DNA of 47,096 bases, from NCBI GenBank assembly GCA_044344255.1, contig JBIJDH010000041.1, positions 1 through 47,096 of the forward strand, written 5' to 3'. Origin of the DNA: Myxococcota bacterium. Lineage in GTDB: Bacteria > Myxococcota_A > UBA796 > UBA2385. A model generated the notes under the pieces. It worked only from the letters and a program-made list of their open reading frames with translations. It ran no database searches and was not told the origin of the DNA. Positions 14,601 to 42,566 of this stretch are shown here, piece by piece. The translations under genes and the position numbers were made by a program. Positions within the stretch are counted from its first letter, which is position 1. Each line of letters starts with the position of its first letter.

Positions 14601-14832
14601 TCCCCAGCGGCGCCGCAGCGGCAGACGGGCGCAGGGAGAGGTCCGCATGGGCCGGCTCTATCTGGAGGAGCGTGGCTGTGTAGGCCCTGACGACGACTGG
14701 AGCGCACCCTCGGGAGCGGCGGCGGCTTTGGTCGGCGCCGGCGGCCGCCGCGAACCTGGGCTTGCGAGGACTCCGCGCGAGTGGATACCCTCGACAATCG
14801 GCCCCATGACACGCGGGCGAAGGAGTCCCGCC

Positions 14833-24504: not shown

Positions 24505-24549
24505 TCAGCGAAGATCGAGGGATAACCGGCGCCGGGAGAGCGTAGGCCC

Positions 24550-26073: not shown

Positions 26074-27915
26074 ATGGACTCCATGCCCGCTCTGGTCGAC
26101 CAGTTCTGCCCCAACGTCCACGACGCGGCGATCACCGCTGCGGCCTATGATCCGAGCAGCGGCACGATCGCGACGGCCGACGAGCACGGGATGGTCGCCG
26201 TGCAGCGCCCCGGCGAGGCCACACCGGGCCTCGTCTTCCACCCTGGCGGCCCGGTGCACGGGGCGATCGGCCTCATCCGGGGCGGCAGCCTGGTGGCGGT
26301 GGGTGACGAAGACGGCACGGTCGGGGTGTACCGCACCGACAACGGCGAGGCCGTGTTCCTCGAGCAGCGCGAGGGCGCCCGAGGCCGAGTTCGGGCCATG
26401 CGCGGCGTCGCGATCAGCCCCGAGGGGGCCAACGTCGCCGCGATCGCGCGAGACGGCCTGCTGCGGGTCTGGTCGCTCCACCGCGACGAACGAAACGCCT
26501 GGAAGGGCTTCGGCGGCGTGTCGGTGGAGTTCGACTCCCGGGGTGAGCGGCTGCTCGCGATGGACGACACCGGGCAGCCTCGCCTGATGGACCTCCGGAG
26601 CCTGCAGGCCCTCTACATGGACCGCCTGCAGACGAGCGCCGACTACGCGCGCTTCAGCCCCGACGGCACGATGGTGGTGGCGGCGGGCCAGGCTGGGATC
26701 TCGCTCCTCCGCGTCTACGACGGTGCCCTGGTCGGGAGCTTCGCCACCCGCGGCGGATCCGGGATCATCAACCTCTTGCTCTCTCCAGAGGGTGATCAGG
26801 CCGGCGCGGTCTCCCAGCGCAGCGTCCACGTGTTCTCGCTGCCCGACCTCCAGCCGGTCGACAGCCGAAAGCACGGGGCGCCCTCCCCCACCGGGGCCGG
26901 TGTATGGACCCCGCAGGGCATCCGCGTCGCCGGTAACGACGGCCTGCTGCACATGGGGGGCACGGGCTCCGCGGGCCCGGTCACCGTGGTGGGGGGCTTC
27001 GGCGAGGCGCGGCTGGCCGCGCACGGCGACCGTGTCGCCTGGTGGAACGGGCAAAAGCGGGTCCTCGAGCTCACCACCAAGTCTCCGCCGCGAGAGCTCC
27101 ACGTGGAGCGGGACGGCCGCTTCGTGGTCTGCGTGCCGAACAACGGCCCGATCGAGGTCTACAACCTCCAGACGGGCAAGCAGGTCTTCGACGGTGGGCC
27201 CGAGTCCAGCGGCGCTCCCGAGGTGGCAGTGGGCGGCAACATCGTGGCGGTGCGGCAGAAGAGCGGCGGCTGCCGGTGGTGGGATCTCGGTCACAACCGT
27301 GGTTACGAGCTCAAGTGGCCCACGGCGATGGCGCTCTCCAACGGCGGCACCTGGCTCGGCGTGGTCACCCCGCGCGGCGCGGTGAAGATCATCGATCCCA
27401 CCTCCGGGCGCGACGCCGTCCCCGCGCCGAAGCCGCTCGCCGAGGTGCCGATCCGGCTGCTCACCTTCGTGAACCGGCGCCCCGACATGATCGTGCTCGA
27501 TCGGGACGGCGTGCTCTCCCACTATGACCTCTCCGCCTCGGCGCGCTCGAACCAGCCCGCAGAAGGGCGGGACGTGATCACGATCAACGTCGAGGTGGAC
27601 CGCATGTGGGGCATCTCGGGCGGGCAATACTGCGCCCTGCGCCTCCCCGAGGCCGACTCCGCGAGCGTGCTCTTCGTAGACGTCCACGCCTGCGAGGTCG
27701 TGCACGAGGTGACTGGGCTCGCGCGTAACGTCTGGGTAGACGCGGAGAATGGCCTCATCCTCGAGCCCGGCCGCGCCGCCGCCTTGGTCGAGCGCGAGAT
27801 GGACGGCCGCGAGCGACGCGTCCTGCGCGCCCTTCCGGACGGCGAGTGGATCAGCTTCGGCTGGCGCGGCATCCTCGACGCCAGCGCCAACGCGGGCGGG
27901 GTGATGGTGGGATGA
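26074..27915 (+). CDS. WD40-repeat (probable double beta-propeller) protein
   Basis: ATG 26074. HDAAITAAAYD...TADEHG.V, VGDEDGTVGVY, AISPEG...DGLLRVWSL, FSPDG repeats. Confidence 0.8.
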   Translation: MDSMPALVDQFCPNVHDAAITAAAYDPSSGTIATADEHGMVAVQRPGEATPGLVFHPGGPVHGAIGLIRGGSLVAVGDEDGTVGVYRTDNGEAVFLEQREGARGRVRAMRGVAISPEGANVAAIARDGLLRVWSLHRDERNAWKGFGGVSVEFDSRGERLLAMDDTGQPRLMDLRSLQALYMDRLQTSADYARFSPDGTMVVAAGQAGISLLRVYDGALVGSFATRGGSGIINLLLSPEGDQAGAVSQRSVHVFSLPDLQPVDSRKHGAPSPTGAGVWTPQGIRVAGNDGLLHMGGTGSAGPVTVVGGFGEARLAAHGDRVAWWNGQKRVLELTTKSPPRELHVERDGRFVVCVPNNGPIEVYNLQTGKQVFDGGPESSGAPEVAVGGNIVAVRQKSGGCRWWDLGHNRGYELKWPTAMALSNGGTWLGVVTPRGAVKIIDPTSGRDAVPAPKPLAEVPIRLLTFVNRRPDMIVLDRDGVLSHYDLSASARSNQPAEGRDVITINVEVDRMWGISGGQYCALRLPEADSASVLFVDVHACEVVHEVTGLARNVWVDAENGLILEPGRAAALVEREMDGRERRVLRALPDGEWISFGWRGILDASANAGGVMVG

Positions 27916-28718
27916 CCACCTCGGCCCCTCCGGGCGTGGCCCCGGCCGGCCTCGACGGCGCAGGCCTGCAGATCTTGGAGGAGGCAGAGGGTTGGCTGAC
28001 CGTGCTCAAGCCGGCCGGCGTCCCGGTGTTTCCACCGCATGGGGATCCGCTTGGCGACTGCGTTCTCTCCCGTCTGCTCCTCCGCCGCCCGGAGCAGGCC
28101 GGGCCCGACTGGGAGCGCGGCTTTGAGGGCGGGCTCTGCCATCGCCTCGACACGGGCACATCCGGGCTGCTGCTGGTAGCGAGGGCACCCGCGGCGCTGC
28201 GCCGCATCCGAGCCGCCTTCTCGTCGCATGGGCTGGAGAAGCGCTACCTCCTGGTCTCGGCCCGAGCGCCGGCTTGGCGCACCACCGAGATCGATCGGCC
28301 GATCGCCCACGATGCCCGTCGCCCAGATCGGATGATCGTCCAGCGGGGCGTGGACACCCCACACCGAGGGCAGTGGTACCCCGCGCGCACCACCTTCGAG
28401 CGCGCGCCATTCACCGTCGAGGGCGGCACCGTCTGGCAGGCGACGATGCGATCCGGGGTGATGCACCAGATCCGGGCGCACGCGGCCGCCGCTGGCTTGG
28501 CGCTCGCCGGAGACCGCCGCTACGGCGGCGGCGCGCCTCTCCCCTGGTTCGGGCCGCTCGAGCTCTGCCTGCACCACCTTGGGCTGTCCGGCGAGGGCCT
28601 TCACCCGCGGCCGGCGCCCCTGCCGAGCTGGCCGCTCCGCAGCCTGCCCACACAGCGCGCGCCTGTCGAGGGTGTGCCCGTCGAAAATGTGCCGCACGGA
28701 CACGCACGGGCGCGATAG
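27912..28718 (+). CDS. RluA-family pseudouridine synthase (no S4 domain)
   Basis: ATGA overlap with the WD40 gene. KPAG, HRLDTGTSG, KRYL, G.MHQIRAH, GDRRYG. Confidence 0.88.
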   Translation: MTTSAPPGVAPAGLDGAGLQILEEAEGWLTVLKPAGVPVFPPHGDPLGDCVLSRLLLRRPEQAGPDWERGFEGGLCHRLDTGTSGLLLVARAPAALRRIRAAFSSHGLEKRYLLVSARAPAWRTTEIDRPIAHDARRPDRMIVQRGVDTPHRGQWYPARTTFERAPFTVEGGTVWQATMRSGVMHQIRAHAAAAGLALAGDRRYGGGAPLPWFGPLELCLHHLGLSGEGLHPRPAPLPSWPLRSLPTQRAPVEGVPVENVPHGHARAR

Positions 28719-28742
28719 GCGAGTCAAACGCAGGAGCGGTGC

Positions 28743-29075
28743 ATGTCCTCCCTGATCACCTCTTTCGCCAGCATCCCCCAGGTCGCCTCCCTCAACGCGA
28801 CCCAGGGCGTCGCCGCGCCGCGAGGGGTCACCCGGAGCGCTGAGTCCTCCACGGTGACGGCCCCTCGTGGAGACTCCGCTGAGATCAGCAACTCCGCTCG
28901 GGTTCGCGCGATCTTCGGGGGAGACCTCGACTATGACGCAGACGACCGCGTCCTCCCCGCCGACAGCACCGACGTGGTGAAGGGAATCGGCGCCGCGTTG
29001 GCGCCGCGGGCAGACCTCTCCCCTCCCCTTCCCGCGCCCGAACCGTCGCCCGAGCGCCTGAACCGTCGAGCCTGA
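28743..29075 (+). CDS. Hypothetical protein (110 aa, low complexity)
   Basis: AGGAG RBS; Ser/Thr/Ala-rich; contains GDSAEISNSAR. Confidence 0.6.
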   Translation: MSSLITSFASIPQVASLNATQGVAAPRGVTRSAESSTVTAPRGDSAEISNSARVRAIFGGDLDYDADDRVLPADSTDVVKGIGAALAPRADLSPPLPAPEPSPERLNRRA

Positions 29076-29131
29076 GCCGCGAAGGATGCCAAACCCGCGG
29101 CGACTGCATAGGCAGAACAGCCGAGGGTTCA

Positions 29132-31690
29132 ATGCGACTTCCCCTGCTGGCCACCCTGTGTCTCACGCTGGCCTTCAGCGCCTGTAAAGAAGGGGCGACC
29201 TATAGCACCGGGGTGGCCATCATCACGCCAGCGGCGGATGATGCGTCCCGCCTCCAGAACGCGCTCGATCGGCTGAGCGCCGTGTCCTTGAGCTTCGAGG
29301 CCGCCGAGCGCGTGAAGAAGCAGGGCGGCGGTGTCGCCATCGATCGCCCTGCGCTGGTCCAAGGCGTGCCCTCCGGCCTCCCTTCGGTGTCGCTCCTGGA
29401 GGATCCGGCGCTGAAGCCCCTCCTCCTGGGCAATGATGAGGCCGCGCTGGCCAAGGCGCTGACCGAGCGCGGAGTGCAGACCGTCATCCTCCAAGGTCGC
29501 GCCGCCGCGGCCCTCGACCGCGGTCTCAACGTCCAGACCCGCCTCTACAACCACGACCAGCTCACCCACTTCTCGCTGTCGCGCGTCGGAACCGGAGGGC
29601 TGCTGGTCTACCAGGTGCTGAGCGAGCCCGTCACCTTCCCGCCCGAGATCGCCAACCTCTGCGTGCAGTACTTGACCGCTCGCCTCAAGGGCAACCGCGT
29701 GACGGGCTTCCCCACGCTGGAGGATGACGGCACCTGGACGCTGATGGCCACCGTACGCGGGCAGGGGCGCGAGATGGCCACCGCCTTCGCCCTCAACAAG
29801 TCGCTGCAGGGCTCCCTCGAGGAGCTCGTGAGCGACATCGAGCGCACCCATCGGCGGGGCGCCGAGCTCTCGGGCTTCCTCCCGATCAACCAGGCGATCG
29901 ACGACCTGACCATCGAGGTGCACCGTGTCGTGGAGCGGGCCACGATCGAGCCCCGGGATGAGGCCTTCCTCCAAGACTACTGGGAGATGGGCATCGACGG
30001 CGCCTACATCCTCACCACCGTCGAGGGCAAGCGGGAGCGGGCCGCCATCTCCGGCGCCGTCTCCTACACCCGATCTCTGCGCACCGCAGACCACTTCCTC
30101 CGCGAGGCGGCGCAGATCGGCGGCATGACCGAGCGCCGCCCCTGGCGCGCCGAGGGGGCCACGCTCGAGAGCCTCCGCACCCTGCACTACATGAAGATGC
30201 CGAAGGGCCCGCTGTTGCCGATGTACCGCGGCGCGCCGTTGATCAGCACCTCCCTGGTGACCCGAGCGGCCACCCGCGAGACGCTGCTCCGCGCCGGAGA
30301 CTGGTACCTGCAAAACATGGGGCCCGACGGGCAGGTCGTCTACAAATTCTGGCCGACCGAGAACCGCTACTCCGACGAATACAACATCGTCCGGCACACC
30401 CTGGCCACGTGGAACCTCGTCCAGGCCTGGAACCTCGACCAGAGACGGGCCGACTTCCTCGTCGGCGCCGAGGCCAACTTCCAGTTCACTCAGAAGTTCC
30501 TCAAGAAGGAGACCGGGCCGGATGGCAAGCCGATGACGTACTACGTCCATCAGCAGAACATCAAGCTCGGCACCGTGGTGGTCCAGCTCCTCGGCTTGAT
30601 CGACCTCGCGCGCGCGAAGAACGATCATCAGTGGGACGAGCAGATGAAGGAGATGGGTCGCTTCATCCTGTTCATGCAGGAGCCGAGCGGCACCTTCCGC
30701 GGGTACCACGTCCCGAAGGGCCACCCGTACGAGAACCAGAAGAACGACATCATCCCGGGCGAGGCGGCCCTCGCGCTGGCCACCCTGGCCACCTACTTCA
30801 ACGATCCCGCCTGGATCGCCACGTTGCCCCGCTACTGGGACTACTTCTACACGTGGTTTGACGAGCGCGCGGCGAAGCGGAAGGAGGGCATGCCCTGGCC
30901 GGCGCTCATCTACGACAACAATGACCGCCTGGACCTCGTCCAGATGGGCCCGTGGACGGTCATGGCCGCCTACGAGTACTACAAGCACACCCAAGACCCG
31001 AAGGTCGCCGCCTTCGGGCTGCGCATCGCTCGTTGGATGATCGACAGCTACATGTGGGACTCTGCCCGAGCTCCATTCCCCGACTATGTGGGCGGATACT
31101 ACAAGTTCGTCGGAGAGCTGCCCGCCATGCAGGCCTTTTGTTACGGCGAGGGCACCGCGGCCGCGTACAAGCTCGCCCTCGTCGCCAAGCCGGACGAGGC
31201 GGCCTACTTCGAGCAGCACACCCGCGAGATGGTGCGCTTCGGCATGCAGATGTCCTTCGATCCGACCAACACCTACGCCTTCAGCCGGCCCGAGCAGGTC
31301 GACGGCGGCATCCGCTACGCCATGAACGAGCCGAAGGTCCGGATCGACTACGTTTATCACGCGTTCTCGGCCATGTATCAGTGGTACGAGGGCGCGGGCA
31401 CCGACGCCGCGCTCGCCGCCTCGGTGAAGGACGGCCCCCTCCACCCCCTCCAGCTCTGGCGGCTCGACGAAGAGCGCAAGGCGGTCGAGGCTGCAAGGCC
31501 GGAGGGCGCGTCGCCGGAGGGCACCCCTCCTTCAGACGTGGTCTGGCAGCGCAAGAACCGCTTCTTCGTCCCGTATTACCGGCCGGATGTCTCTCGAGAG
31601 CTCATCATGCCGGGTGAAGCCATGAAAGCCCGCGACGGCGCCCGCCCGAGCGGTGATGATGACGAGGCGAAGGAGCCGGCCGAAGAATGA
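29132..31690 (+). CDS. Exported lipoprotein with an AMMECR1-like domain and a C-terminal alpha-helical barrel
   Basis: Lipobox FSA|C. AMMECR1-like segment (TVRGQG...LTIEV...MGIDGAYI). Barrel motifs YNIVRH, IKLG, PGEAALAL, GGIR...RIDYVYHAFSA. Confidence 0.75.
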   Translation: MRLPLLATLCLTLAFSACKEGATYSTGVAIITPAADDASRLQNALDRLSAVSLSFEAAERVKKQGGGVAIDRPALVQGVPSGLPSVSLLEDPALKPLLLGNDEAALAKALTERGVQTVILQGRAAAALDRGLNVQTRLYNHDQLTHFSLSRVGTGGLLVYQVLSEPVTFPPEIANLCVQYLTARLKGNRVTGFPTLEDDGTWTLMATVRGQGREMATAFALNKSLQGSLEELVSDIERTHRRGAELSGFLPINQAIDDLTIEVHRVVERATIEPRDEAFLQDYWEMGIDGAYILTTVEGKRERAAISGAVSYTRSLRTADHFLREAAQIGGMTERRPWRAEGATLESLRTLHYMKMPKGPLLPMYRGAPLISTSLVTRAATRETLLRAGDWYLQNMGPDGQVVYKFWPTENRYSDEYNIVRHTLATWNLVQAWNLDQRRADFLVGAEANFQFTQKFLKKETGPDGKPMTYYVHQQNIKLGTVVVQLLGLIDLARAKNDHQWDEQMKEMGRFILFMQEPSGTFRGYHVPKGHPYENQKNDIIPGEAALALATLATYFNDPAWIATLPRYWDYFYTWFDERAAKRKEGMPWPALIYDNNDRLDLVQMGPWTVMAAYEYYKHTQDPKVAAFGLRIARWMIDSYMWDSARAPFPDYVGGYYKFVGELPAMQAFCYGEGTAAAYKLALVAKPDEAAYFEQHTREMVRFGMQMSFDPTNTYAFSRPEQVDGGIRYAMNEPKVRIDYVYHAFSAMYQWYEGAGTDAALAASVKDGPLHPLQLWRLDEERKAVEAARPEGASPEGTPPSDVVWQRKNRFFVPYYRPDVSRELIMPGEAMKARDGARPSGDDDEAKEPAEE

Positions 31691-31817
31691 CGCGCCGGCT
31701 GCGTCGGACACGGTTGGGGGCGGAGCCCCTCCGCGACCGCGCGGGCCTCCCCTCGCCGCCAAACGGGTCCTAACCCCCGCTCTCTCACGATAAACCTTCC
31801 CTGAAGATGGAGCTCAC

Positions 31818-32612
31818 ATGCGCATGTCCCCGATGGTGATCGCCCTCGCTCTCCTCGCCGCCTGCAGCGGCAAGAACCCCCTCGAGTCTGATCCGCAGAC
31901 CTCCTACTGCGAGGCCGTGTGCCAGGACGCCGCCGACTGCGCCGCCGCCGAGCGGGGAGCCGACGCGGCCGCCCTCTACGAAGAGTGCCTCGCCGCCACG
32001 CACGCCGTGGACTCCTCCTGCGAGGAGGCCGAGTCTGGCGGCCTCGATCCTGCGTCCAGCGAGGCGCTGTCCGCCTGCACTGACGCTGTGGAAGGGGACG
32101 CGAGCTGCGACGACTACACCGGCTCCTACACCGAGCAGGAGAGCGGCACCCCGCCCGCCGAGTGTGCCAGCCAGGGCACCGACGCCAACGGCGTCTACGA
32201 CGCGGCCCAGGATTCGACCGAAGAGACCAACGACGAGCTCTGTGAGCGCTTCACGGACACGTTCTGCGAGCAGCTGACCGGCTGCATCGCCGAGACCCTC
32301 GGGGACGGCTACCAGGCCGCCGTGGACGCGATCGGCGTCGAGCCGGTCGAGCGCTGCACCACCTCGGTCTCTTCCCAGACCGAGTCCTGCAAGGCCGACG
32401 AGCTCTACGCTCCCGGCGAGAGCGCCACCGACCCCAACACCGCGCGCGAAGGCGCCCGCGAGTGCCTCACCGACTTCGCGGCCCTCACCTGCGAGCAGCT
32501 CTACGCAGGCGACCTCCCCGCCACCTGCGCCGCTGCGTTCACCGACACCGAGACCGCCACCGCCTTCGCCACCGCGATCGCGGGCGTCGCCACCGAGTAC
32601 ACGGGCGGCTGA
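31818..32612 (+). CDS. Cys-rich, highly acidic lipoprotein
   Basis: GGAG RBS, lipobox LAA|C, many Cys in CxxxC-type helical patterns, Asp/Glu/Thr-rich. Confidence 0.75.
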   Translation: MRMSPMVIALALLAACSGKNPLESDPQTSYCEAVCQDAADCAAAERGADAAALYEECLAATHAVDSSCEEAESGGLDPASSEALSACTDAVEGDASCDDYTGSYTEQESGTPPAECASQGTDANGVYDAAQDSTEETNDELCERFTDTFCEQLTGCIAETLGDGYQAAVDAIGVEPVERCTTSVSSQTESCKADELYAPGESATDPNTAREGARECLTDFAALTCEQLYAGDLPATCAAAFTDTETATAFATAIAGVATEYTGG

Positions 32613-32633
32613 GCCCCTGCCCGCGGGCAGGGC

Positions 32634-32906
32634 CTACAGGCTGCGCTTCATGAAGCCGTCGGCGTCCCGCTCGGGAGCCGGCGGCGCTTCGTTTGGGGGG
32701 GAGCCGCCGGGCGAGGCGCTCGGCCCGGCTCGTTGGGCGTCCCCCGGCTCCGGCTCCCCACGCGCCGGCCGACGTCGCGGCAAGACGGCCTCGGCGTCAC
32801 GCAGCTCGGCGTCGAGGGCGGCCTCTCGGGCGCCCCCCTCCCGGCTCTGGCTGCTCACCCGCACGCCCCCCTTGACGAGGTTGGCGATCCTGCCGAAGAA
32901 GCTCAT
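32634..32906 (-). CDS. Small hypothetical protein with a PspA-like N-terminal amphipathic helix
   Basis: GGAG RBS; MSFFGRIANLVKG, a short helix, then a Pro-rich tail. Confidence 0.6.
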   Translation of the reverse strand: MSFFGRIANLVKGGVRVSSQSREGGAREAALDAELRDAEAVLPRRRPARGEPEPGDAQRAGPSASPGGSPPNEAPPAPERDADGFMKRSL

Positions 32907-32939
32907 GGGGACTCCGTTCCACCAAGGTACGAGATCAAG

Positions 32940-33677
32940 CTACGGGATCGGCGCCCTCGGGGCAAGCGCCGACGGCGCCGCGCCCACCGCCGGGGCCGGA
33001 GCGGGGTGGAGCCCGTCCAGCGATGCCTGGAGCCCGGGATCGAGGGCCTCGGCGGGGCGACCGCGCAAGAGCAGCCAGTCGCCGCTCGGCCAAGCGGGGA
33101 GGCCGAGCAGCACATGGTCGAGGTAGAAGCTGCCAGGACCCCCACCGTAGGCCTCGTCTCCCGTCAGGGGGAGCCCGCGACCGGAGAGCAGCGCCCGGAT
33201 CTGATGTCGACGCCCGGTGAGCAGGCGGATGAGGAGGTGGAGCTCCCCCCGCCGCCCGGGGGCCGGGGCCGCGGCGAGGAGGTCCATGTGCGCGGCCTTA
33301 CCGCCCGACCGGACGAGCTCGACCCGCCCGCCGGCCTCGCGCAGGTAGCCGGAGATCCGCCCGAGCTCGACGCCCTCCGCAGGTGCCCTCACGCGCGCGA
33401 GGTAATGTTTGGCCCAGCGTCGCGCGGTGATCTGCGCCCCGTGAAAGGCGGCGCTCTCTCGGCTGAGCCCCACGACCAGCAGGCCCTGGGTGCCGCGGTC
33501 GAGGCGGTGGCAGAGGCGCGCGCCCGCGTGCCCCTGACGCCTCAGCCAGCCGATGAGCGAGGCGCCGTGCGGATCCGTGGTGAGCTCGGAGGCCATCCCC
33601 GGGGGCTTCCAGACCACCAGATCACCGGGCCCCTCTCGGAGGATCATGGGGGCGGGCGGCGGCGGGTGGCTGCGCAT
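32940..33677 (-). CDS. RluA-family pseudouridine synthase (no S4 domain)
   Basis: WKPPG, HRLDRGTQG, KHYLA, TGRRHQIRA, GDEAYG. Alternative start at ATG 33647. Confidence 0.88.
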   Translation of the reverse strand: MRSHPPPPAPMILREGPGDLVVWKPPGMASELTTDPHGASLIGWLRRQGHAGARLCHRLDRGTQGLLVVGLSRESAAFHGAQITARRWAKHYLARVRAPAEGVELGRISGYLREAGGRVELVRSGGKAAHMDLLAAAPAPGRRGELHLLIRLLTGRRHQIRALLSGRGLPLTGDEAYGGGPGSFYLDHVLLGLPAWPSGDWLLLRGRPAEALDPGLQASLDGLHPAPAPAVGAAPSALAPRAPIP

Positions 33678-33700
33678 CGGGGCCGGGCTTATCGGTTGGC

Positions 33701-34384
33701 ATGTCCCTCGACATCCTGCTCCAGGACAACCACCTGCTCGTGGTGGACAAGCCCGCGGGCTGTCCGGTCGTGCCCGATGACAGCGGTGACCTTTCGCTCC
33801 TCGATCTGGCGAGAGCGTGGATCCGCGAGGTCGCCCAGAAGCCTGGCAACGTCTTCGTCGGCGTGGTCCACCGCCTGGACCGGCCGGTGTCCGGCATTGT
33901 GCTCTTTGCCCGCACCAGCAAGGCCGCGGAGCGCCTGAGCGCCCAGCTCCGGGAGCACCAGTTCAAGAAGCTCTACCTCGCCCAGGCCCGCGGGAGCCTC
34001 CCGCGTTCGGAGGGCGAGGTGGTGCAGTGGCTGCGGAAAGATGAGGCCACCAACACCGTGCACGTGCTGCGCGGGCCGGCGCCGGGGGCGAAGCAGGCCA
34101 TCACCCGCTACCGGGTGCGCTCTCAGGTGGGGGACCTCTATGAGCTCGAGCTCGAGCCGGTGACCGGACGCTCCCATCAGCTCCGCGTGGCGATGGCCAG
34201 CCTGGGCGCGCCCCTGCTGGGCGATCTCAAGTACGGCGCCCTCGCCGCCCTTCCGGGCCGTAACATTGCGTTACACGCTACTTTATTGCAGTTCAAACAT
34301 CCAACGCTCGGAGAGGACGTCGTCGTGCGCTCCCCGCCTCCGTGGGCGCCCCGCGAGGAGGCGATCAGGGGATCGGCGCGCTGA
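33701..34384 (+). CDS. RluA-family pseudouridine synthase (no S4 domain)
   Basis: DNHLLVVDKPAG, VHRLDRPVSG, KLYLA, TGRSHQLRV, GDLKYG, LHA..L.F.HP. Confidence 0.93.
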   Translation: MSLDILLQDNHLLVVDKPAGCPVVPDDSGDLSLLDLARAWIREVAQKPGNVFVGVVHRLDRPVSGIVLFARTSKAAERLSAQLREHQFKKLYLAQARGSLPRSEGEVVQWLRKDEATNTVHVLRGPAPGAKQAITRYRVRSQVGDLYELELEPVTGRSHQLRVAMASLGAPLLGDLKYGALAALPGRNIALHATLLQFKHPTLGEDVVVRSPPPWAPREEAIRGSAR

Positions 34385-35447
34385 CGACCAGGCGCGGCGG
34401 GCCGCCACCGTCGGCGACGAACCAGGCCTCGAGCGTGCTGCCCACGGGCGGGGCCGGGAGGAGCAGGCGGCCTTGGAGGCTGAAGCGGGCCGCGGCGTCA
34501 GTCGACCAGCCCACGCGCTCGAGGCTGCCCGCGGCCACGGCGGCCTCTAACCAGGGCCGCTGCCCAGGATCGAGGACGCGCACCCAGGTCCATCCCGGGG
34601 CCCCAGGGTTGAGGCGGCCGCGGAGCTCGAGCTCCCCGTCGACCATCTTGGCGCTCAGCGTCGGCGGCCCGCCGGAGGGCTCGCCGCGGAGGGGCGGCCC
34701 GGGGGCCACGGTGCCGCTCGCGTAGGCGCGGATCAGGGGGGGCAAGTCGCGGACCGCGGCGGCGGTCTCCTGCAGGTCGAGCTCCGGGGAGAGCTCGTGG
34801 ACCTCGAGGCTCCCGCTCGGGCCGTCGATCACCAGCGCCGAACAAGACCAGCCCTTCAGCGGGCCCGAAGAGAGCGGCCAGGCGAGGCCCTCCACCCGGC
34901 TCGACGGCGCGCCGTGGATGATCAGGTTCGGGTTGAGCCACACGTCTCCCGCCGGACGTGGATCGAAGCGGAGGCCGACCCGGGACCGACGCTGTCCGGG
35001 GGCACCGCGGTAGCCCGAGGCCGAGAGCGTCCACCCGTCCGGGCCCTGCTCTCGGTAGAGGGCGGTGGTGCCGGTCTCCCAGCGGGTCACCCGCCAACGG
35101 GGATCGGCGGCGAGGCGGTCAAGGAGCGCGGCCTCGTGGGCCGCATCGAGGAGGCCGACGCCGCTCGAGTCGGCCTCGAGGCCGAAGCGGGTGCGGGCGC
35201 GGGTGAATTCCCGGAGATCGTCGGTGCTGACTGGCGGCTGGAGCAGCGGCGCACCGGCCTCGGCGCCGTTCGGCGGCGGCGCCGAGAGCGGCGAGGCCGG
35301 CGGCGGCGGGCCCGTAGGAGGGGGTGGCGGCGGCGGTGTCACCACCTCCGCGGCCTTCTTCTCCTTCTTCGGCTTGGCTGCGAGCGTGCCAGGGCCGACC
35401 AGCAGGCCGAAGCAGAGGGGGGCGAGCAGCCAGCGGCGGAGGGTCAA
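34365..35447 (-). CDS. Hypothetical exported protein with Lys-rich start and poly-Pro linker
   Basis: TTG start after GGAG, signal peptide (..GTLA|AKPKKEKK), PPPPPPPTGPPPP linker, high GC3. Confidence 0.65.
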   Translation of the reverse strand: MTLRRWLLAPLCFGLLVGPGTLAAKPKKEKKAAEVVTPPPPPPPTGPPPPASPLSAPPPNGAEAGAPLLQPPVSTDDLREFTRARTRFGLEADSSGVGLLDAAHEAALLDRLAADPRWRVTRWETGTTALYREQGPDGWTLSASGYRGAPGQRRSRVGLRFDPRPAGDVWLNPNLIIHGAPSSRVEGLAWPLSSGPLKGWSCSALVIDGPSGSLEVHELSPELDLQETAAAVRDLPPLIRAYASGTVAPGPPLRGEPSGGPPTLSAKMVDGELELRGRLNPGAPGWTWVRVLDPGQRPWLEAAVAAGSLERVGWSTDAAARFSLQGRLLLPAPPVGSTLEAWFVADGGGPPRLVVSAPIP

Positions 35448-35499: not shown

Positions 35500-37551
35500 T
35501 CAGCTCCCGAAGTGGCGCAGGACCTCGGCGGGGGTGGTCCAGCCCTCTGTGAGCAGCAGCGCGCTGTACCGCTTGAAGGAGACGATGATCCGGTCCTGTT
35601 CGGCGATCTGCCGGAGGGTGGCCCCGAGGTCGCGGGCCCCGATCGACTCCCGCAGCCGGTCGTTGACCTGCAGGAACTCGTAGGCGGCGACCCGACCTTG
35701 AAAGCCGGTGCCCTTACAGGCGGTGCAGCCCGAGGAGGCCCAGAGCTGCCGGCTCTCGGCGAGGGGGAGGATGTCGGCCTCGGCGAGGTGGGCGCGGGTC
35801 GCTTCTCCGACCGGCGCCGAGTGGCGACAGAGCGGGCAGAGGCGCCGCAGCAGCCGCTGGCCCACCACGAGCGAGAGGGCGCTGGCCACGAGGTACGGCC
35901 GACAGCCCATCTCGATCAGGCGCACCGCCGCCTCGCCGGTGCTGTTGGCGTGCACGGTGCTGAGCACGAGGTGACCGGTGAGCGAGGCCTCGAGCGCGAT
36001 CTGGGCCGTGACCTCGTCGCGCATCTCCCCCACGAGGATCACATCGGGATCCTGGCGAAGCATCGAGCGGAGAACGAGCGGGAAGGTGAGGCCGGCGGCC
36101 TCGTTCACGCCCGTCTGGGTGATGCCGGAGAGCGTGTATTCGACCGGGTTCTCAATCGTGCTCACGCTGACGTCCGGCCGGGCCGCGACGAGCTCGCGCA
36201 AGGCCGAGTAGAGCGTCGTGGTCTTGCCGGACCCCGTCGGTCCGCAGACGATGAGGCAGCCCGAGGTCCCGAGCAGCGTGCGGCGGAGGGTGCCGAGCAT
36301 GGCCGGAGAGAGGATGAGCTGGTTCAAGGGGCGGAGCCCGGCCGCGGAGTCGAGGATGCGCAGCACCGCCTTCTCTCCGTAGACGGAGGGCATGGTGCTC
36401 ACGCGCAGCTCGACGTTCCGGTCGCGCACCTTCAGGCTCGCTCGCCCGTCCTGGGGGAGTCGCTTCTCCGAGATGTCGAGGCCGGCCGCCACCTTGATGC
36501 GAGACACCAACGGCACCACGAGGCCCATCTCCGCGCGCTGGTAGGTCTCGAGGGCGCCGTTGACGCGGAGGCGGATGAGCGCGCGGTCCTCGCCGGGCTC
36601 GATGTGGATGTCGGAGGCCCCCTGGTTCACCGCCGTGGCGAGGAGCGTGTTGAGGGCCTCCACCACACGATCTCCAGCGACCAGCGCGCGCGGGGCCACC
36701 TCGTCGAGGCTGAAGGCGGTGAGGCGCACCTCGGAGGGGCGCAGGTCGCGGAGCTCGGCCTCGACCCGCCGCACCACCGGCCGCCGCTCGAGGGTTGGTG
36801 TGATGACAAAGCGCTCGTAACGGTCGTAATCCTCGGCCGTGCACGCGTGAGGCCGGAAGCGGAGCCCGGGGGCGGCCTCCTTCAGGGCGACGAAGATGCC
36901 GGGGTCGGCGGGGCGGGTCATCGCGAGGAGCACGGTGGTGCCCTCTCGCCCGAAGGGGACGACTTGGTGGCGGAGGAGCAGGCGCCGGGGGAAGAGATCG
37001 TAGACCTCTGGCTCAAAGGGGAGATCGCGCAGGCGGACCGCCTTGACGGGGCTCTGCCGCCCCCGATCCTGGAGGAGGCGGGCGAGGTTTTGGGCCGTGA
37101 CGAGGGCGATCGCGGCCTCGTCCAACAAGAGCGCGTTGAACTCGTTCCGCCCCAGCACCGCACAGTCAACCGGCTCGGTGGCCTGAACGGTGGCCGTGCG
37201 GGGCTCGGCGAGCAGGATGCCCACCTCACCCACCGGATCGCCGGCCCCGACCTCGCCCACGTCGAGCTGGACCCCGGTGCCCGCCTCTTCGACGAGGACC
37301 CGAGCGCGCCCGCGGACCACGAGCAAGAAGGTGTCGCTCGGGCTCCCCTGGGCGACGAGCACCTGACCTGCCTCGAAGCGGGCCAGCACCATGCGGGAGG
37401 CGATCCGCTGTTGCTGCTCTCGGCTGAGGCCAGCGAAGAGCGTGGTCGTGGCGAGGTGATCGGCGAGCGAGGCGAACACCGCCTCGGTGAGGCCGTTGGT
37501 GCCGGCATCGGGAGCGGGCTCGGGCGCGGCCCCGTTCAAGGATTTGTTCAC
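35500..37551 (-). CDS. GspE/PilB-family secretion/pilus ATPase with an N-terminal cyclic nucleotide-binding domain
   Basis: CNB: LFAGL...F.AG..L..QG...G.GD.VGE...PRTATV. Then a T2SSE N-domain (VVPF...LLAM..P), ASDIHIEP, LDISEKRLPQDG, GPTGSGKTTTLY, TIENPVEY, LRQDPDVILVGEMRD, TGHLVLSTVHAN, CPLC...CTAC. Confidence 0.93.
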   Translation of the reverse strand: MNKSLNGAAPEPAPDAGTNGLTEAVFASLADHLATTTLFAGLSREQQQRIASRMVLARFEAGQVLVAQGSPSDTFLLVVRGRARVLVEEAGTGVQLDVGEVGAGDPVGEVGILLAEPRTATVQATEPVDCAVLGRNEFNALLLDEAAIALVTAQNLARLLQDRGRQSPVKAVRLRDLPFEPEVYDLFPRRLLLRHQVVPFGREGTTVLLAMTRPADPGIFVALKEAAPGLRFRPHACTAEDYDRYERFVITPTLERRPVVRRVEAELRDLRPSEVRLTAFSLDEVAPRALVAGDRVVEALNTLLATAVNQGASDIHIEPGEDRALIRLRVNGALETYQRAEMGLVVPLVSRIKVAAGLDISEKRLPQDGRASLKVRDRNVELRVSTMPSVYGEKAVLRILDSAAGLRPLNQLILSPAMLGTLRRTLLGTSGCLIVCGPTGSGKTTTLYSALRELVAARPDVSVSTIENPVEYTLSGITQTGVNEAAGLTFPLVLRSMLRQDPDVILVGEMRDEVTAQIALEASLTGHLVLSTVHANSTGEAAVRLIEMGCRPYLVASALSLVVGQRLLRRLCPLCRHSAPVGEATRAHLAEADILPLAESRQLWASSGCTACKGTGFQGRVAAYEFLQVNDRLRESIGARDLGATLRQIAEQDRIIVSFKRYSALLLTEGWTTPAEVLRHFGS

Positions 37552-37631
37552 GGGGGCTCCAGAACGTGAGGTTCAGCCTCTAACGAGGCAGCACGCCAGA
37601 GCTGGACTCCCCACTGGCGGGGACGCTCAGC

Positions 37632-40600
37632 TCACCCCCGCAGGCGCTCGCCGAGGGACCCGATCTGCAGCGCCAGCTCAGCCTCGGGCTGGAGGCGGAG
37701 GCGGGCGCCGATGTCCTCGGCCTCGGACCAGCGGCGGAGCGCGGCCTCACGATCGCCCCCGTCGAGCGAGAGGCCGCCGGCGAGGCAGAGGAGCTTGCCG
37801 AGCTCCCCCGCGTCTCCCGCCTCACGGAGGCGGGCCTCCCCAAGCTCAATGCGCGCGAAGCCGCCGACCCGGTCACCGCCTCGCACCTCGATCGCCCCCA
37901 GAGAGCCCAGCGCGGCGCCCTCCGTGAGGCGATCCCCGGTGCTGCGGGCGAGGCGAAGGACACCGTGCAGGCGCTCCCGGGCGGCGTCGATGTCACCCAG
38001 CCGGAGGAGCAGCTCGGCGTAATTCACGCTGTGGAAGGTCTCGTGGACGAGATCTCCGACGGATCCCGAGGTCTCGAGCGCACGCTCAAAGGCCTCCTGC
38101 GCGGCGAGGTGGTCGCCACACAGGAGGTGAATGTTGGCGATCATCCCCTGGCAAAGCCCCTCGGTGCGGCGATCCCCGAGGCGGGCGGCGAGCTCCCTCG
38201 CGGCCTCGTAGGCGGCTCGTCCCGCCAGGAGGTCCCCGTTCACGCAGTAGAGCGCCCCCAGATGGCTCCGGCAGTGCGCCTCACCCGCCTGGTCGCCGGT
38301 GCGGATCTGGAGCTCCAAGGACTCGTCCAGGAAGGCCCGGCCCGCTGCAAAGTCTCCCCCGCGTATGCCCACGACGTGACCGAGCTCGGCGAGGGTTCGC
38401 GCCTCGCCCCGCTGGTCGCCGCTGCGGCGAAACAGGGGCAGGGCGGCGGAGAGCTGCCCTCGGGCCACGTCGAGGTCCCCGCGCACGAGCGCGAGCTCTC
38501 CGAGGCCCAGGCGCGCCGAAGCCTCGACGCCGGCCTCTCCCCGCGCCGCGGCCTCCGCCTGGGCCGCCTCCAACAAGGGCGCGGCCCGCTCGGTCTGTCC
38601 GGCGCGGGTGCGGAGCTGGGCGAGGGCGATGGAGACCCGGTGGCGGAGCGACCAGCTTGGGCCCGCGTCGAGGGTGAGGCTGGCCAGGGACTCGCCGACG
38701 TCGGGCGGCGCCCGCCCCTCGAGGCAGGCGAGGGCGGCGAGGGCGGCGCGGGCGGCGACATCAGCGGCCTCCGCGGCCGCGGCGCGGCGCACCGCGGCGC
38801 TCAGGTTCTCGAGCTCGAGCGTGGCGCGGGCCCGAAGCACGGCGCCGTCCCGCCCATGGAAGGCGGCGACCTGATCGACCAGCCCTGCAAAATGTTCCGC
38901 GTGGCGCGCCTCGATCGACCGCCGCGCAGGGGGGCCGCTCCAGGCTTCGCCGCTCGCCGCCGGGATGGCCGAGGGGTCGACCAGCTTCTCGAGCGCATAC
39001 TCCTGGATCGAGCGAAACAAGGTGAAGCGAGTGTCTCCTTCAGAGTTGGCGGCGGACCGGAGCAGGCTCTGGTCGACCAGCGACTCGAGGATGTCCGTTG
39101 CCCAAGGCGCGTCGGGCCAGTCCGACAGATCGAGGACCGCCTCTGCGGCCTCCAGATCGAAGCCCCCTTCGAAGACCGCGCACTGGGCGAGGGCGGCGCG
39201 CTCCACCGCGGAGAGGAGGCCCCAAGACCAGTCGATGGCCCCGCGGAGCGTGCTCTGGCGCGCCGATCCGGCCCCGCGCTGCCCCGCGAGGAGGTCAAAT
39301 CGACGCCCCATGCGCTCGAGGATGCGCTTCGGCGGCAGCACCCGCACCCGCGCCGCGGCGAGCTCAATCGCCAGGGGGAGGCCGTCGAGCAGCCGCACGA
39401 GGCGGGCCACGTCCCGCGCGTTCTCGGCGGTGATGGAGAAGGTGGGCAGGACCGCGCGCGCCCGGCTCTGGAACAGGGCGGCCGCGGGGTTCTGCGCGAG
39501 CAGCGAGGCCGGGGCCTGCTCGTCGGGGAGCGGCAGCGGCTCGACGTAGACGAGGCGCTCCTGGCGCAGCGCGAGGCGCTGGCGGCTCGTCACCAGCCAG
39601 CCCACCCGAGGGGCGACCTCCGACCAGCGACGGAGCAGCTCTCCCATCACCTGGATGAGCTGCTCGCAGGTGTCGAGGACGACGAGGAGGTCTCCCCGGT
39701 GGGAGAGCGCCTCGCCGAGGGTGAGCACAGCGTCGCCCTGATCGAGGGGGACGTTGAGCACCCGACCGAGGGCCACCGCGACCGCGGTGGCGGAGCGAGC
39801 CTCCGAGAGATCGACGAACCAGGCGCCGGCCGTCCAGGAGACCAGGAAGGTGCTCGCGTATCGGATGGCGAGCAGGCTCTTGCCGGCCCCGCCGGAGCCG
39901 CAGAGCGTGACGACCCGATCACCGGATTGGAAGGCGTCGGCGATCGCGCGGAGCTCCACCTCGCGCCCGTGAAAGCTGCCATTGCTGCTCGGGAGCGAGC
40001 TCGGGATCTCTCGGGCCGGGCGCCAGCCGTCGCCCACCCGCACCACGGCCATCACCTTGCCGCTGTCTGGGGGCGGCTGGAGCGGCGCCACACCGAGGGC
40101 TCCGCCTTCCCAGACCTCGCTCGGCTCGGCCACCCCCTTCATCTGGAACCAGCCGTGGCGGACGAGGCGGATGCCCGCCTCCATCGACAGGGCGGCGCCG
40201 AGGGCGGCCATCGCCGCCGAGCTCAGCAGCGTCTGGCCCGGGCCGGCGAGGGTCATGATGCGCGCCGCGGTCGCCTTGGCGATGCCCTCGACCTCGAGCG
40301 GCTTGGCGCCGCGGGCGACGTCTTCGGCCGAATTGCTGATCAGCCGGACCTCGCCGGTGTGGAGACCGGCCCGCGCCGAGAGTTGTACGTCGAGCGTCCA
40401 GGAAAGCTCTCGGAGCGCGTTGTGGTACGCGAGGGCGTATCGAAGGCCGTCCTCCACCTGCTCGAACAGGAAGAGGAAGCCGTCCGACTTGTCGATCTCC
40501 CTCCCACCATGCGCCGCCAGGAGGTCTCGCGCGGCCCGATCGTGGCGGGTCATCACCAGAGCGGCCCGCTCGTCGCCGAGCTCGCTGACCATCTTCGTGC

Positions 40601-40664
40601 TGTCCACCAGGTCGGTGAGCAGCAGGCTGCGGATGACCGGACGCTCCGTAGACTCCAACATCAC
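37632..40664 (-). CDS. Class III nucleotidyl cyclase-like domain, STAND NTPase and TPR repeats
   Basis: Cyclase: LLLTDLVDST, DKSDGF, ARAGLHTGEV, AARIM..A.PGQ.LLS, G.F.MKG. STAND: GSGGAGKS, VVLDTCEQ, TSR, GLPLAIELAA. C-terminal TPR helices. Confidence 0.9.
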   Translation of the reverse strand: MMLESTERPVIRSLLLTDLVDSTKMVSELGDERAALVMTRHDRAARDLLAAHGGREIDKSDGFLFLFEQVEDGLRYALAYHNALRELSWTLDVQLSARAGLHTGEVRLISNSAEDVARGAKPLEVEGIAKATAARIMTLAGPGQTLLSSAAMAALGAALSMEAGIRLVRHGWFQMKGVAEPSEVWEGGALGVAPLQPPPDSGKVMAVVRVGDGWRPAREIPSSLPSSNGSFHGREVELRAIADAFQSGDRVVTLCGSGGAGKSLLAIRYASTFLVSWTAGAWFVDLSEARSATAVAVALGRVLNVPLDQGDAVLTLGEALSHRGDLLVVLDTCEQLIQVMGELLRRWSEVAPRVGWLVTSRQRLALRQERLVYVEPLPLPDEQAPASLLAQNPAAALFQSRARAVLPTFSITAENARDVARLVRLLDGLPLAIELAAARVRVLPPKRILERMGRRFDLLAGQRGAGSARQSTLRGAIDWSWGLLSAVERAALAQCAVFEGGFDLEAAEAVLDLSDWPDAPWATDILESLVDQSLLRSAANSEGDTRFTLFRSIQEYALEKLVDPSAIPAASGEAWSGPPARRSIEARHAEHFAGLVDQVAAFHGRDGAVLRARATLELENLSAAVRRAAAAEAADVAARAALAALACLEGRAPPDVGESLASLTLDAGPSWSLRHRVSIALAQLRTRAGQTERAAPLLEAAQAEAAARGEAGVEASARLGLGELALVRGDLDVARGQLSAALPLFRRSGDQRGEARTLAELGHVVGIRGGDFAAGRAFLDESLELQIRTGDQAGEAHCRSHLGALYCVNGDLLAGRAAYEAARELAARLGDRRTEGLCQGMIANIHLLCGDHLAAQEAFERALETSGSVGDLVHETFHSVNYAELLLRLGDIDAARERLHGVLRLARSTGDRLTEGAALGSLGAIEVRGGDRVGGFARIELGEARLREAGDAGELGKLLCLAGGLSLDGGDREAALRRWSEAEDIGARLRLQPEAELALQIGSLGERLRG

Positions 40665-40757: not shown

Positions 40758-42566
40758 ATGAGGCTGACCCTACGCCGCCCCGTGCTAACCGCGATCGCCC
40801 TCTTTGGATGTGCCCTCGGGGGGCTGTCGCTCGGCGGCTGCGCGTCTACCAAGGACACAGCGGGCTCTTCGGCCGCCGACGAGTCCGGTACCCAAGGAGA
40901 CGGCGTCATCTTCAAGGGGCCGATGTCGACCGGCGCCACCGTCACGGTCGAGCCCTTTCACGACGACCTCTCTCCCGCTGGCGACCCCGTGACGAGCAGC
41001 GTCAGCGACAATTCGGGCGCCTACGCCTTTGACATCGCTCACCGCGGCATCGTGCGCGTGACCGCCGAAGGGACGGTCTTCGACGAATCACAGGGGGCGA
41101 CTGGCACCAAGACGATCAAGATGATCGCGTGGGGCTCCCTCGACGCCGACGAGGAGACTGTCCAGGTCAACATCCTCACCGACCTCACGAGCTTGCGGGT
41201 GGAGGCCCTCCTCGGGCAGGGTGCGACCATCGACGACGCCATCGCGCAGGCCGAGCAGGAGCTACACGAGGCGATCTCGATCGGCGCCGGCGCGCGGCCC
41301 GAGGGGAACGGCGAGGCGCTCGATCCGTACAGCGAGGGCGCGGACGCCTCGTGGTTGTTCGCGGCGAGCTCGGTGATCGCGCAGACCGGCCAGGACATGG
41401 AGCTCGCGGGGACCGGCGATCTGGGCCTCGTCCTCGACAGCCTCCGCGGGGATCTGGCCGAAGATGGAGCCGTAAACGCCTCGCTGACCGGCGCCCTCTC
41501 GATGGGGGAGCGCCACCTCGATCCCGATCTCGCGGTCTGGGGCCTCGCCCGCCTCTTCGGAGAGGCGCCGCCGCCCGGCAGCTTGCCAGACCCTCACCCC
41601 GCCCTCGACTCCGACCAGGACGGGCTCCCGAACGATCGTGATAACTGTCGTTACACCGCAAATCCTGACCAGACTGACTCCGAAGGGCGAGGTTTCGGGG
41701 ATGACTGCGACCTTCGTTTGAGCGCCATCTCCACCACCGACGCCTGGGGCTGCGGCCTCCTGGCGCGTGATGGGCACCTGACCTGCTGGGAGGTCCAGGC
41801 GGCCCCCACCGGCGGCGCCCCGCCACGCCCCGACAGCTACCCGGCGCATCCGAACGCCCCCTGGGGGGAGGCCGCGGTGCTCACGGGCGCCTACCAGGAC
41901 GTCGTGGTGGTCGAAAGCAAGGTCTGTGTGCTCGATCTCGGGGGCACGATGTCCTGCTGGGTGGAGGACCTCGAGGCGGTCACCGAGGCGCTCGGGGTCT
42001 TCTCGGAGATGGTGATCAACCGCGGGCAGATCTGCGGCCTCGACGTGGACGGTGCGCTGATCTGCGCCGACCAGGCCGGCGTGCCTACCTACACCGCCAC
42101 CGGTCCCTTCCGCTCTGCGGCCCCCTTCGGGGAGGCGGCGATCTGCGCCGTCAACGAGTCAGGGGAGCTCGAGTGTTTCGATAATGCAGGCTACACCCTG
42201 GATATCCCTGGAACCCCGGCCGGGCCCTTCGTGTCGGTGCGCGGCGGCCCTTCGGGGGATGCCTGGGGCTGCGCGATCTCGGAGGTCGGAGAGCTCTCCT
42301 GGTTCGGCGGAAACTCCCTCATCGGCGGCGGGCCCAGCACCGGCACCTGGGAGGACGTCGCCCTCGGCGCCTCGGCGGCCTGCGCGACCTCCAGCTCAGG
42401 CGAGCTCTTCTGCTGGCGAGATGAAGAGCTCTGTCCCGCCTACGTGGCAGATCCGCCGCGCGGACGGATGCCCTCGGTGAGCAGCTGCGAGGCGTGTGTG
42501 GTCGACGACGCGGGCCTCGGCGTCTGCTGGCCCCGATATTGGGACCAGCAGGGCGAGGCGCCCTGA
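40758..42566 (+). CDS. Lipoprotein with a Fibrobacter-type N-domain, a TSP3-like Ca-binding repeat and an RCC1-like propeller
   Basis: Lipobox LGG|C; KGP..GATV...VNILT..RV..L..G...AE.EL; DSDQDGLPNDRDNC...NPDQTD...GDDCD; seven C...G...C(W/F)-type blades. Confidence 0.75.
   Translation: MRLTLRRPVLTAIALFGCALGGLSLGGCASTKDTAGSSAADESGTQGDGVIFKGPMSTGATVTVEPFHDDLSPAGDPVTSSVSDNSGAYAFDIAHRGIVRVTAEGTVFDESQGATGTKTIKMIAWGSLDADEETVQVNILTDLTSLRVEALLGQGATIDDAIAQAEQELHEAISIGAGARPEGNGEALDPYSEGADASWLFAASSVIAQTGQDMELAGTGDLGLVLDSLRGDLAEDGAVNASLTGALSMGERHLDPDLAVWGLARLFGEAPPPGSLPDPHPALDSDQDGLPNDRDNCRYTANPDQTDSEGRGFGDDCDLRLSAISTTDAWGCGLLARDGHLTCWEVQAAPTGGAPPRPDSYPAHPNAPWGEAAVLTGAYQDVVVVESKVCVLDLGGTMSCWVEDLEAVTEALGVFSEMVINRGQICGLDVDGALICADQAGVPTYTATGPFRSAAPFGEAAICAVNESGELECFDNAGYTLDIPGTPAGPFVSVRGGPSGDAWGCAISEVGELSWFGGNSLIGGGPSTGTWEDVALGASAACATSSSGELFCWRDEELCPAYVADPPRGRMPSVSSCEACVVDDAGLGVCWPRYWDQQGEAP

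Follow-up and report, generated by a model that had tools for sequence, protein, structure and literature searches.

The 47,096-nucleotide contig JBIJDH010000041.1 of a Myxococcota bacterium (GCA_044344255.1; this whole stretch is called the window) contains a class III cyclase-STAND-TPR gene (gene A) and, directly downstream on the same strand, a pilus/secretion-type ATPase gene that starts with a cyclic nucleotide-binding (CNB) domain (gene B). The question raised by this locus is whether gene B reads a nucleotide made by gene A. We favor, at somewhat less than even chance, a non-exclusive writer-reader link in which gene A would produce cyclic GMP (cGMP) for an interchangeable CNB reader, here the predicted pilus motor encoded by gene B. 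The window locus is one local pairing and no new conserved system; close relatives do not share the pair.

The locus and its assembly

The following features were assigned in the host genome (8.18 Mb, 71% GC).

37632..40664, minus strand: gene A, class III cyclase (XC_0250/TIGR04510-type domain)-STAND NTPase-TPR protein, 1010 aa; start possibly the ATG at 40661
40053..40643, minus strand: cyclase domain, aa 8-204, with invariant D18, D61, and R135, and with D58, E124, and A131
38985..40001, minus strand: STAND NTPase region, aa ~222-560, with its motifs and weak AfsR and HaaT matches
37665..38636, minus strand: TPR superhelix, aa ~677-1000, predicted sensor
37552..37631, minus strand: intergenic gap of 80 bp, with GGAG at 37557-37560
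35500..37551, minus strand: gene B, CNB-MshEN_C-PilB/GspE-type ATPase, 683 aa, an extra paralogue
37057..37476, minus strand: CNB domain, aa 26-165, with cassette G108-E109...R118-T119-A120 and a long C-helix (146-165)
36820..37041, minus strand: MshEN_C alpha/beta subdomain, aa 171-244; MshEN_N bundle absent
35518..36666, minus strand: T2SSE ATPase core, aa 296-678, with Walker A, Asp-box E467, catalytic E509, His box, R383/R398, and tetra-Cys zinc motif

Open reading frame (ORF), domain, and motif searches agreed with the preliminary description that a cyclase-STAND-TPR gene lies 80 bp upstream of a co-oriented ATPase gene with an intact CNB domain. That description was right on domains and order, but had overlooked MshEN_C, the non-canonical cyclase residues, a D468N replacement in gene B, and a conserved divergent lipoprotein gene. 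The GGAG in the gap lies 5 nt ahead of the GTG start of gene B. No terminator-like site was found in the gap by a consensus scan, which is weak evidence. The GC content at third codon positions was 0.89 in gene A and 0.92 in gene B.

Metagenomes from lakes and rivers in 16 studies contained the stretch, and the junction was checked against contigs from 4 runs of 4 studies. A single contig spanned the whole 8.3 kb in X5, the A-B junction and the lipoprotein gene in X9, and the ATPase start and gap in X13; X17 gave fragments only. An assembly artefact at the junction was ruled out by the spanning contigs of X5, X9, and X13.

Gene A encodes a predicted guanylyl-type cyclase on a STAND-TPR receptor

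Residues 8-204 of gene A matched the TIGR04510 cyclase (E 1e-57, model positions 2-202), and the protein also matched AAA_22 and TPR_12. The score of 196 bits was below the whole-protein cut-off of TIGR04510 (400 bits), with a STAND domain in place of the middle part. Pfam Guanylate_cyc (PF00211) gave no match to gene A at E < 0.01. The model of the cyclase domain (pLDDT 90) had a class III fold. Its best Foldseek match was LipJ/Rv1900c, and the best matches together (LipJ, Ma1120, Cya2) had E values of 1e-13 to 1e-15. The cyclase subfamily comprised at least 1965 proteins at E ≤ 1e-20, and a plasmid search gave weak matches only.

The metal-binding D18 and D61 and the transition-state R135 were invariant across the subfamily. 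In the alignment to Ma1120 (D58=K101, E124=D157, A131=A164), the purine-selecting Lys is replaced by D58, the second specificity position is occupied by E124, and A131 replaces the usual Asn. Neither canonical specificity pair (Lys with Asp/Thr, or Glu with Cys/Gly) nor the Asn was found in gene A, and the beta2-beta3 loop had a one-residue deletion. All 121 subfamily sequences had an acid at the purine-selecting position. Ma1120, which likewise has Ala in place of the usual Asn, is an active enzyme, and its K101E variant moves activity towards GTP (PMC4215837).

The cyclase domain was 49-50% identical to cyclases that pass TIGR04510 (845-867 bits against the same cut-off). Full TIGR04510 members were located directly behind CNB-GGDEF genes, whose CNB domains matched PDB 5H5O best (E 1.4e-22). 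Residue counting along the printed 5H5O stretch gave F73, E90, L91, H98, V142, N145, and E146, which are the residues named for XC_0249 of Xanthomonas campestris (PMC3770947). The neighbor of XC_0249, XC_0250, is a cyclase with TPRs that was reported to be a GTP-only guanylyl cyclase (PMC3770947). Because the CNB domain beside TIGR04510 members matches 5H5O best, and the residues printed for 5H5O fit XC_0249, XC_0250 very likely belongs to the same subfamily as gene A. The likeliest product of the gene A cyclase is cGMP, since the domain is of the TIGR04510/XC_0250 type and carries an acid at the purine-selecting position.

The STAND motifs were intact: Walker A (256-263), Walker B (326-334), VTSR (357-361), and GLPL (427-438). 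Gene A has the AfsR/NB-ARC-like effector-NOD-repeat architecture, with Walker A/B, sensor Arg, and GxP. No DNA-binding HTH was detected in gene A. The fusion of a cyclase to a STAND module is a known architecture, as in cyclase-NB-ARC proteins such as Rv0386.

Two further genes of the gene A cyclase type were found in tandem at G000 C81:67082-71220, the upstream one apparently without the first metal Asp. In L065:1-12027 (G011) and L067:5911-9219 (G001), a short ORF for a peptide of 62-64 aa, with Gly-Gly late in its sequence, lay ahead of a subfamily member. At the former locus, two CNB proteins were also encoded, together with a CNB-C39-peptidase ABC exporter and HlyD.

Gene B encodes a PilB-type ATPase with a CNB domain at the sensor position

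Gene B contains cNMP_binding (58-142), MshEN (171-244), and T2SSE (296-678) domains. The CNB cassette GEVGILLAEPRTA at aa 108-120 was intact and matched the pattern G-E-x(6-9)-R-x-A, and the domain aligned to PKA RI-alpha (E 1e-24). The cassette contains RT, as in the cGMP receptor CgrA (PMC10187061), which is suggestive only for nucleotide preference.

The middle part of gene B aligned to residues 47-106 of M. xanthus PilB and 77-129 of Geobacter PilB, and weakly to 66-144 of V. cholerae MshE (E 0.55). In MshE, cyclic di-GMP (c-di-GMP) is bound by MshEN_N, residues 1-62 (PMC5013675). The homology starts at MshE 66 and PilB 47-77; therefore, this part of gene B is MshEN_C, and the CNB domain takes the usual position of the c-di-GMP sensor. 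A relaxed 24-residue MshEN_N motif was not found in gene B, and the same pattern also missed the other PilB proteins of the host. Judged from sequence, the CNB domain in gene B replaces the c-di-GMP-binding MshEN_N bundle. In the gene B model (pLDDT 86, pTM 0.65), the CNB C-helix (146-165) continues into MshEN_C, followed by a flexible linker and a PilB/PilF-like core.

Gene B has K443 (Walker A), E467 (Asp box), the catalytic E509, H527/H534 (His box), R383/R398 (Arg fingers), and C572/575/609/612 (tetra-Cys), and the residues given as fully conserved for this ATPase family (PMC5424180) were present. Gene B scored below the PilB and GspE equivalog cut-offs (392 vs. 676 and 428 vs. 630 bits). 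The host genome contains four to five other PilB/GspE genes, and, from N-terminal sequences, pilC or gsp genes were located beside those on C23 and C59.

The CNB-MshEN_C ATPase family

To survey the family, 401 genomes of the host phylum were searched with a CNB+MshEN_C profile. Full-span matches were found in at least 80 other genomes among the matches listed, a lower bound with 7 candidates scored per genome. Of the 84 new loci, 80 were taken (4 at contig edges were left out), which gave 94 together with 14 earlier ones. ATPase fusions were present at 90 loci of 78 genomes and stand-alone CNB-MshEN_C at 4. The fusions included 31 PilB-type, 58 PilT-type, and 1 CpaF-like ATPases, and 1 was cut short. 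A second phylum (301 genomes) gave nine more CNB-ATPase loci. The cassette was intact in 47/90 CNB-ATPase genes, and a prepilin motif was found near 3/94 family loci.

The closest homologue of gene B was found in genome G003, with 62% identity over the N-terminal part. In the ATPase tree, CNB-PilB proteins, except that of L128, grouped apart from ordinary PilB, though the support was weak (0.43), and CNB-PilT proteins fell inside PilT; we do not read an origin or a sequence of events from this tree. A word-index protein search, which under-reports the family, gave one gene B homologue only. A scan with the ATPase alignment over named genomes, 1/64 of the collection, gave ordinary PilB/GspE only. 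In a weak control of 80 loci of other phyla, 0 cyclase and 0 CNB genes were found.

Among 26 aligned PilB-like proteins, ATPase motifs were lost in 16, and 15 of these 16 kept the cassette Glu and Arg. A PilB pseudo-ATPase clade (P0023, P0026, P0034, P0035, P0041, P0047, P0052, P0053, P0057, P0066, P0069, P0083, P0116, P0118, and P0138; alignment A2) had decayed Walker A/B, Asp, and His boxes with the zinc motif and CNB cassette kept. One such protein was labelled Armatimonadota. These CNB-MshEN_C-PilB pseudo-ATPases could possibly act as nucleotide-gated inhibitors or scaffolds.

The stand-alone CNB-MshEN_C genes without ATPase were located at L033:8631-9362, L140:7791-9341, L144:7808-9772, and L156:7669-8457. 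Two of the four lay head-to-head with Cache-HAMP cyclases in which the purine-selecting position is a guanylyl-like Glu. At L368:4181-10165, a metallo-beta-lactamase-HisKA-REC-cyclase fusion was followed by a CNB-MshEN_C-PilT-PDZ gene and a CNB gene, a run that may place writer, eraser, and reader together. Tandem CNB-PilT and CNB-PilB genes faced a prepilin gene at L022:7031-11664 (G011). CNB-MshEN_C-FHA was fused to a CpaF/TadA-like ATPase at L161:6151-8607, and a TGA inside the CNB domain interrupted a CNB-PilT gene at L139:3858-5978.

No description of N-terminal CNB-PilB/PilT, or of its link to this cyclase, was found in the literature searched, which had most subscription papers outside it and included the supplements of PMC5013675 only. 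The M. xanthus PilT paralogues were described without a CNB domain in the available part of PMC13584747.

CNB genes adjoin the cyclase subfamily above chance

A CNB gene adjoined the gene A cyclase subfamily at 21/127 other loci, compared to about 0.5% expected. Within 450 bp, these were 2/36 own-phylum, 16/80 metagenome, and 3/11 second-phylum loci. When one duplicate and a set of 8 CNB-GGDEF loci, all of a single type, were removed, 7/71 metagenome loci were left (P 9e-8 at the 0.5% rate). The reader types varied and included CNB-GGDEF, TPR-CNB, SulP-STAS-CNB, redoxin-CNB, and tandem small CNB proteins. In G007, two CNB genes were located directly behind the gene A orthologue.

On an unrelated contig (L319:1146-7645), genes for GAF-MshEN-PilB, CNB-MshEN_C-PilT, and a cyclase-kinase-TPR protein were arranged in a row, 52 bp apart. 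The cyclase was 53% identical to that of gene A, and the contig ends inside this gene. L319 pairs the cyclase subfamily with a CNB motor independently of the window, with a different ATPase type, sensor architecture, and order, and it is a better candidate than the pair of the window for a complete motor-control operon. In L302, a T2SSE-REC-TPR fusion without CNB was located upstream of a gene A-type cyclase.

Other class III cyclases were located within ~7 kb of 6/90 CNB-ATPase loci, compared to 1.0-1.7 predicted by per-genome counts (P 6e-4 to 7e-3, with non-independent kin and differing profiles). All 6 of these loci had an intact cassette, versus 41/84 others (Fisher P 0.027). Two of them (L110 and L121) contained cyclase-AAA_16-TPR genes of other subfamilies, both convergent. 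The A-B adjacency is thus probably not pure chance. The writer-reader logic of the preliminary description held loosely, in that CNB genes adjoin the cyclase subfamily far above chance, once as CNB-PilT, but it did not hold as this exact pair.

Proposed mechanism

In the favored link, a ligand at the TPR would open and oligomerize the STAND domain, as expected from its family and intact motifs. This oligomerization would pair the cyclase domains, which, judged by homology and residues, would then produce cGMP. Binding of cGMP to the CNB cassette of gene B would move the C-helix; its run into MshEN_C belongs to the modeled anatomy, and the coupling is what we propose. MshEN_C is presumably the part through which PilB/GspE docks on the membrane stator, and this N1D-stator contact is itself deduced from type II secretion homologues (PMC11656802). 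This may either bring the gene B paralogue to a pilus or type II secretion machine, whose genes lie elsewhere in the genome, or prevent it from joining that machine. Since the nucleotide diffuses and 15 further cyclase genes are present in the genome, such a link would be non-exclusive.

A bolder form of this idea, which we regard as speculative and rather unlikely, is that the cGMP of an NLR-like STAND receptor acts directly on a pilus motor. CNB-MshEN_C would then be a swappable sensor-docking head on extension (PilB), retraction (PilT), and Tad (CpaF-like) ATPases and on dead pseudo-ATPases, or would stand alone as a decoy, so that cyclic AMP (cAMP)/cGMP would directly decide which motor engages the pilus machine.

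Conservation of the pair and alternative explanations

Several results weigh against a functional link between genes A and B. The gene A cyclase subfamily was found at 0/90 other CNB-ATPase loci of the phylum (0.96 Mb of flank) and at 0/9 of the second phylum. Co-occurrence was at chance in 400 genomes, where the cyclase was present in 20, the ATPase fusion in 75, and both in 3 compared to 3.75 expected. In G003, the closest ATPase homologue follows an MFS gene and the gene A orthologue is on another contig, and the genomes (87-92% complete) of 5/6 closest gene A orthologues gave no CNB-MshEN_C match. The 0.5% chance rate was taken from one genome, kin are not independent, and signaling genes cluster for other reasons; with 16 cyclase and 17 CNB genes in the host, about one pair within 8 kb is expected by chance. 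The nucleotide assignment is also open to doubt. Acids at both specificity positions fit neither the canonical adenylyl nor the guanylyl pattern, RT/RS cassettes also bind cAMP, and the guanylyl activity of the family depends on a single paper (PMC3770947). The residue assignment in that paper seems shifted: it describes the catalytic Arg as substituted, whereas this Arg never varies in the family, and the L157 and A161 of the paper fit the positions right after it. In its available part, the table of cyclic mononucleotide-sensing c-di-GMP enzymes in a 2022 review does not include XC_0249 (PMC8846402). Finally, gene B has the D468N replacement in the Asp box. The published list of fully conserved residues (PMC5424180) does not include this position; N468 was also present in 3 other homologues, and the closest homologue has Asp.

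From the side of gene A, a T2SSE ATPase was found at 0/36 other own-phylum loci of the cyclase, and no ATPase was near the 6 closest gene A orthologues, of which four were aligned with 52-54% full-length identity. Only 1 of these six genomes had a CNB-PilB. A divergent lipoprotein gene was located beside 6/6 of them, and the five aligned proteins were 34-46% identical. Its copy in the window was as follows.

40758..42566, plus strand: Cys-rich predicted lipoprotein, 602 aa, one TSP3 repeat, divergent from gene A at 93 bp

The stable inherited unit is gene A with this divergent lipoprotein, and the ATPase is joined to gene A in this lineage only, among the genomes searched. A conserved dedicated A-B pair was rejected by the counts of 0/90, 0/36, and 0/9, and genome-level co-inheritance by the observed 3 versus 3.75 expected genomes. 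The recurrence of the adjacency in relatives, which had been set beforehand as a test, thus failed for the exact pair. The Cys-rich lipoprotein matched no named family; it was conserved head-to-head with gene A in 7 genomes, and a paralogue was found at G000 C28:18521-20194.

These results would also be explained if the two genes were incidental neighbors, gene A working with the lipoprotein and gene B being an independent CNB-gated paralogue that reads the general cAMP/cGMP pool of other cyclases. This explanation, a serious if rather unlikely one, agrees with the lack of conservation from either side, the chance co-occurrence, the lipoprotein in 6/6 orthologues, and the canonical Lys-type cyclases in the host genome, and the neighbors of gene B homologues vary freely. 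It does not account for direct CNB neighbors of the cyclase family at 10- to 40-fold over the chance rate, or for the independent cyclase/CNB-PilT adjacency in L319. The wiring could instead be correct with cAMP, a pyrimidine cyclic nucleotide, or no product at all, the cyclase being a mere dimerization domain. The non-canonical site (Asp/Glu at the specificity positions, the beta2-beta3 deletion, no Asn), the missing PF00211 match, and the fact that the closest solved structures, LipJ and Ma1120, are adenylyl cyclases point in this direction; we consider it improbable, since both metal Asp and the Arg are invariant in the subfamily, XC_0250 was reported with GTP-only activity, and frequent CNB neighbors favor an active enzyme.

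Two further explanations are very improbable. The dedicated, conserved, self-contained two-gene circuit of the preliminary description draws on the co-orientation, short gap, and intact motifs, and the pair was seen in other samples of the same population; it was largely refuted by non-conservation, as no other genome searched contained the pair. The circuit is not self-contained either: no pilin, platform (PilC), or secretin gene was seen near gene B in the window, and the host genome holds many other writers and readers among its cyclase and CNB genes. An anti-phage role, in which STAND-TPR detects a phage protein (Avs-like) and a cyclic nucleotide stops pilus assembly and hides the phage receptor (Pycsar-like), has equally little probability. 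Pili serve as phage receptors, the STAND-TPR architecture would be suitable, and the CNB resembled PycTIR CNB models, generically (E 1e-11 to 1e-13). However, the cyclase-STAND protein matched no Avs/PycC model beyond generic TPR, the neighbors are housekeeping genes, the GC content equals the window average, and no defense genes were recognized among the neighbors scanned. The assignment was rejected because PADLOC gave no specific match, only generic TPR and CNB.

Relation to known systems

The preliminary description stated that no characterized writer-reader pair of this kind was known, which is too strong: XC_0250/XC_0249 was reported as a cyclase-TPR and CNB-effector pair (PMC3770947). 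The locus resembles that pair in the cyclase subfamily (very likely the same), the TPR sensor, and an adjacent, co-oriented CNB reader. Unlike XC_0250, gene A has a STAND domain and falls below the TIGR04510 whole-protein cut-off. XC_0249 is a CNB-GGDEF diguanylate cyclase (PDB 5H5O), whereas the reader here is a motor ATPase that lies downstream, and the pairing in the window is not conserved. No peptide precursor, SagB-type, or CNB-GGDEF gene was found among the called neighbors of gene A.

MshE, PilB, and PilF are extension ATPases gated by c-di-GMP via MshEN (PMC5013675, PMC11656802). Gene B shares with them the core with zinc motif, MshEN_C, and the N-terminal position of the nucleotide sensor, but lacks the MshEN_N bundle and motif, has a CRP/PKA-type CNB domain instead, and is an orphan paralogue beside the ordinary PilB/GspE genes. 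A CNB fusion to a PilB-type ATPase has also been listed for Desulfotalea psychrophila DP2226 (MshEN-T2SSE-cNMPbind; Supplementary Table 4 of PMC5013675), but that protein keeps MshEN and carries its CNB at the C-terminus. The same table has no entry for the N-terminal CNB-MshEN_C fusion or for its PilT counterpart. Mycobacterial LipJ/Rv1900c and Ma1120, the closest solved folds to the gene A cyclase, are active without the canonical Asn; both are adenylyl cyclases, whereas Asp occupies the Lys position in gene A. In Pseudomonas, cAMP-Vfr control of type IV pili (PMC11656802) likewise leads from a class III cyclase to the pilus motor; that control is transcriptional, whereas control of gene B would be allosteric on the ATPase. 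In the available part of that review, direct second-messenger action on pilus motors is described for c-di-GMP only, with cAMP acting via transcription (PMC11656802).

A motor family with a built-in predicted cAMP/cGMP site in at least 75/400 sampled genomes of the host phylum makes direct cyclic-mononucleotide control of pilus motors testable on a single soluble fragment of 230 residues. Furthermore, few writers and readers are known in bacterial cGMP signaling. The locus ties a large cyclase subfamily, missed by Pfam in gene A, to a reported Xanthomonas guanylyl cyclase, and shows this subfamily recruiting many different CNB readers.

Other genes in the window

A 360-aa ORF (34365-35447, minus strand), 52 bp behind the ATPase gene, has a signal-like start and a Pro-rich stretch; it had no family match and no homologue in any fetched locus. 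The regions 20522-26010, 27846-34384, 6868-13909, and 14647-18324 jointly contained three genes for GH57 glycoside hydrolases, three for RluA-type pseudouridine synthases within 7 kb, a his operon, and a gene for a MopE/FG-GAP repeat protein.

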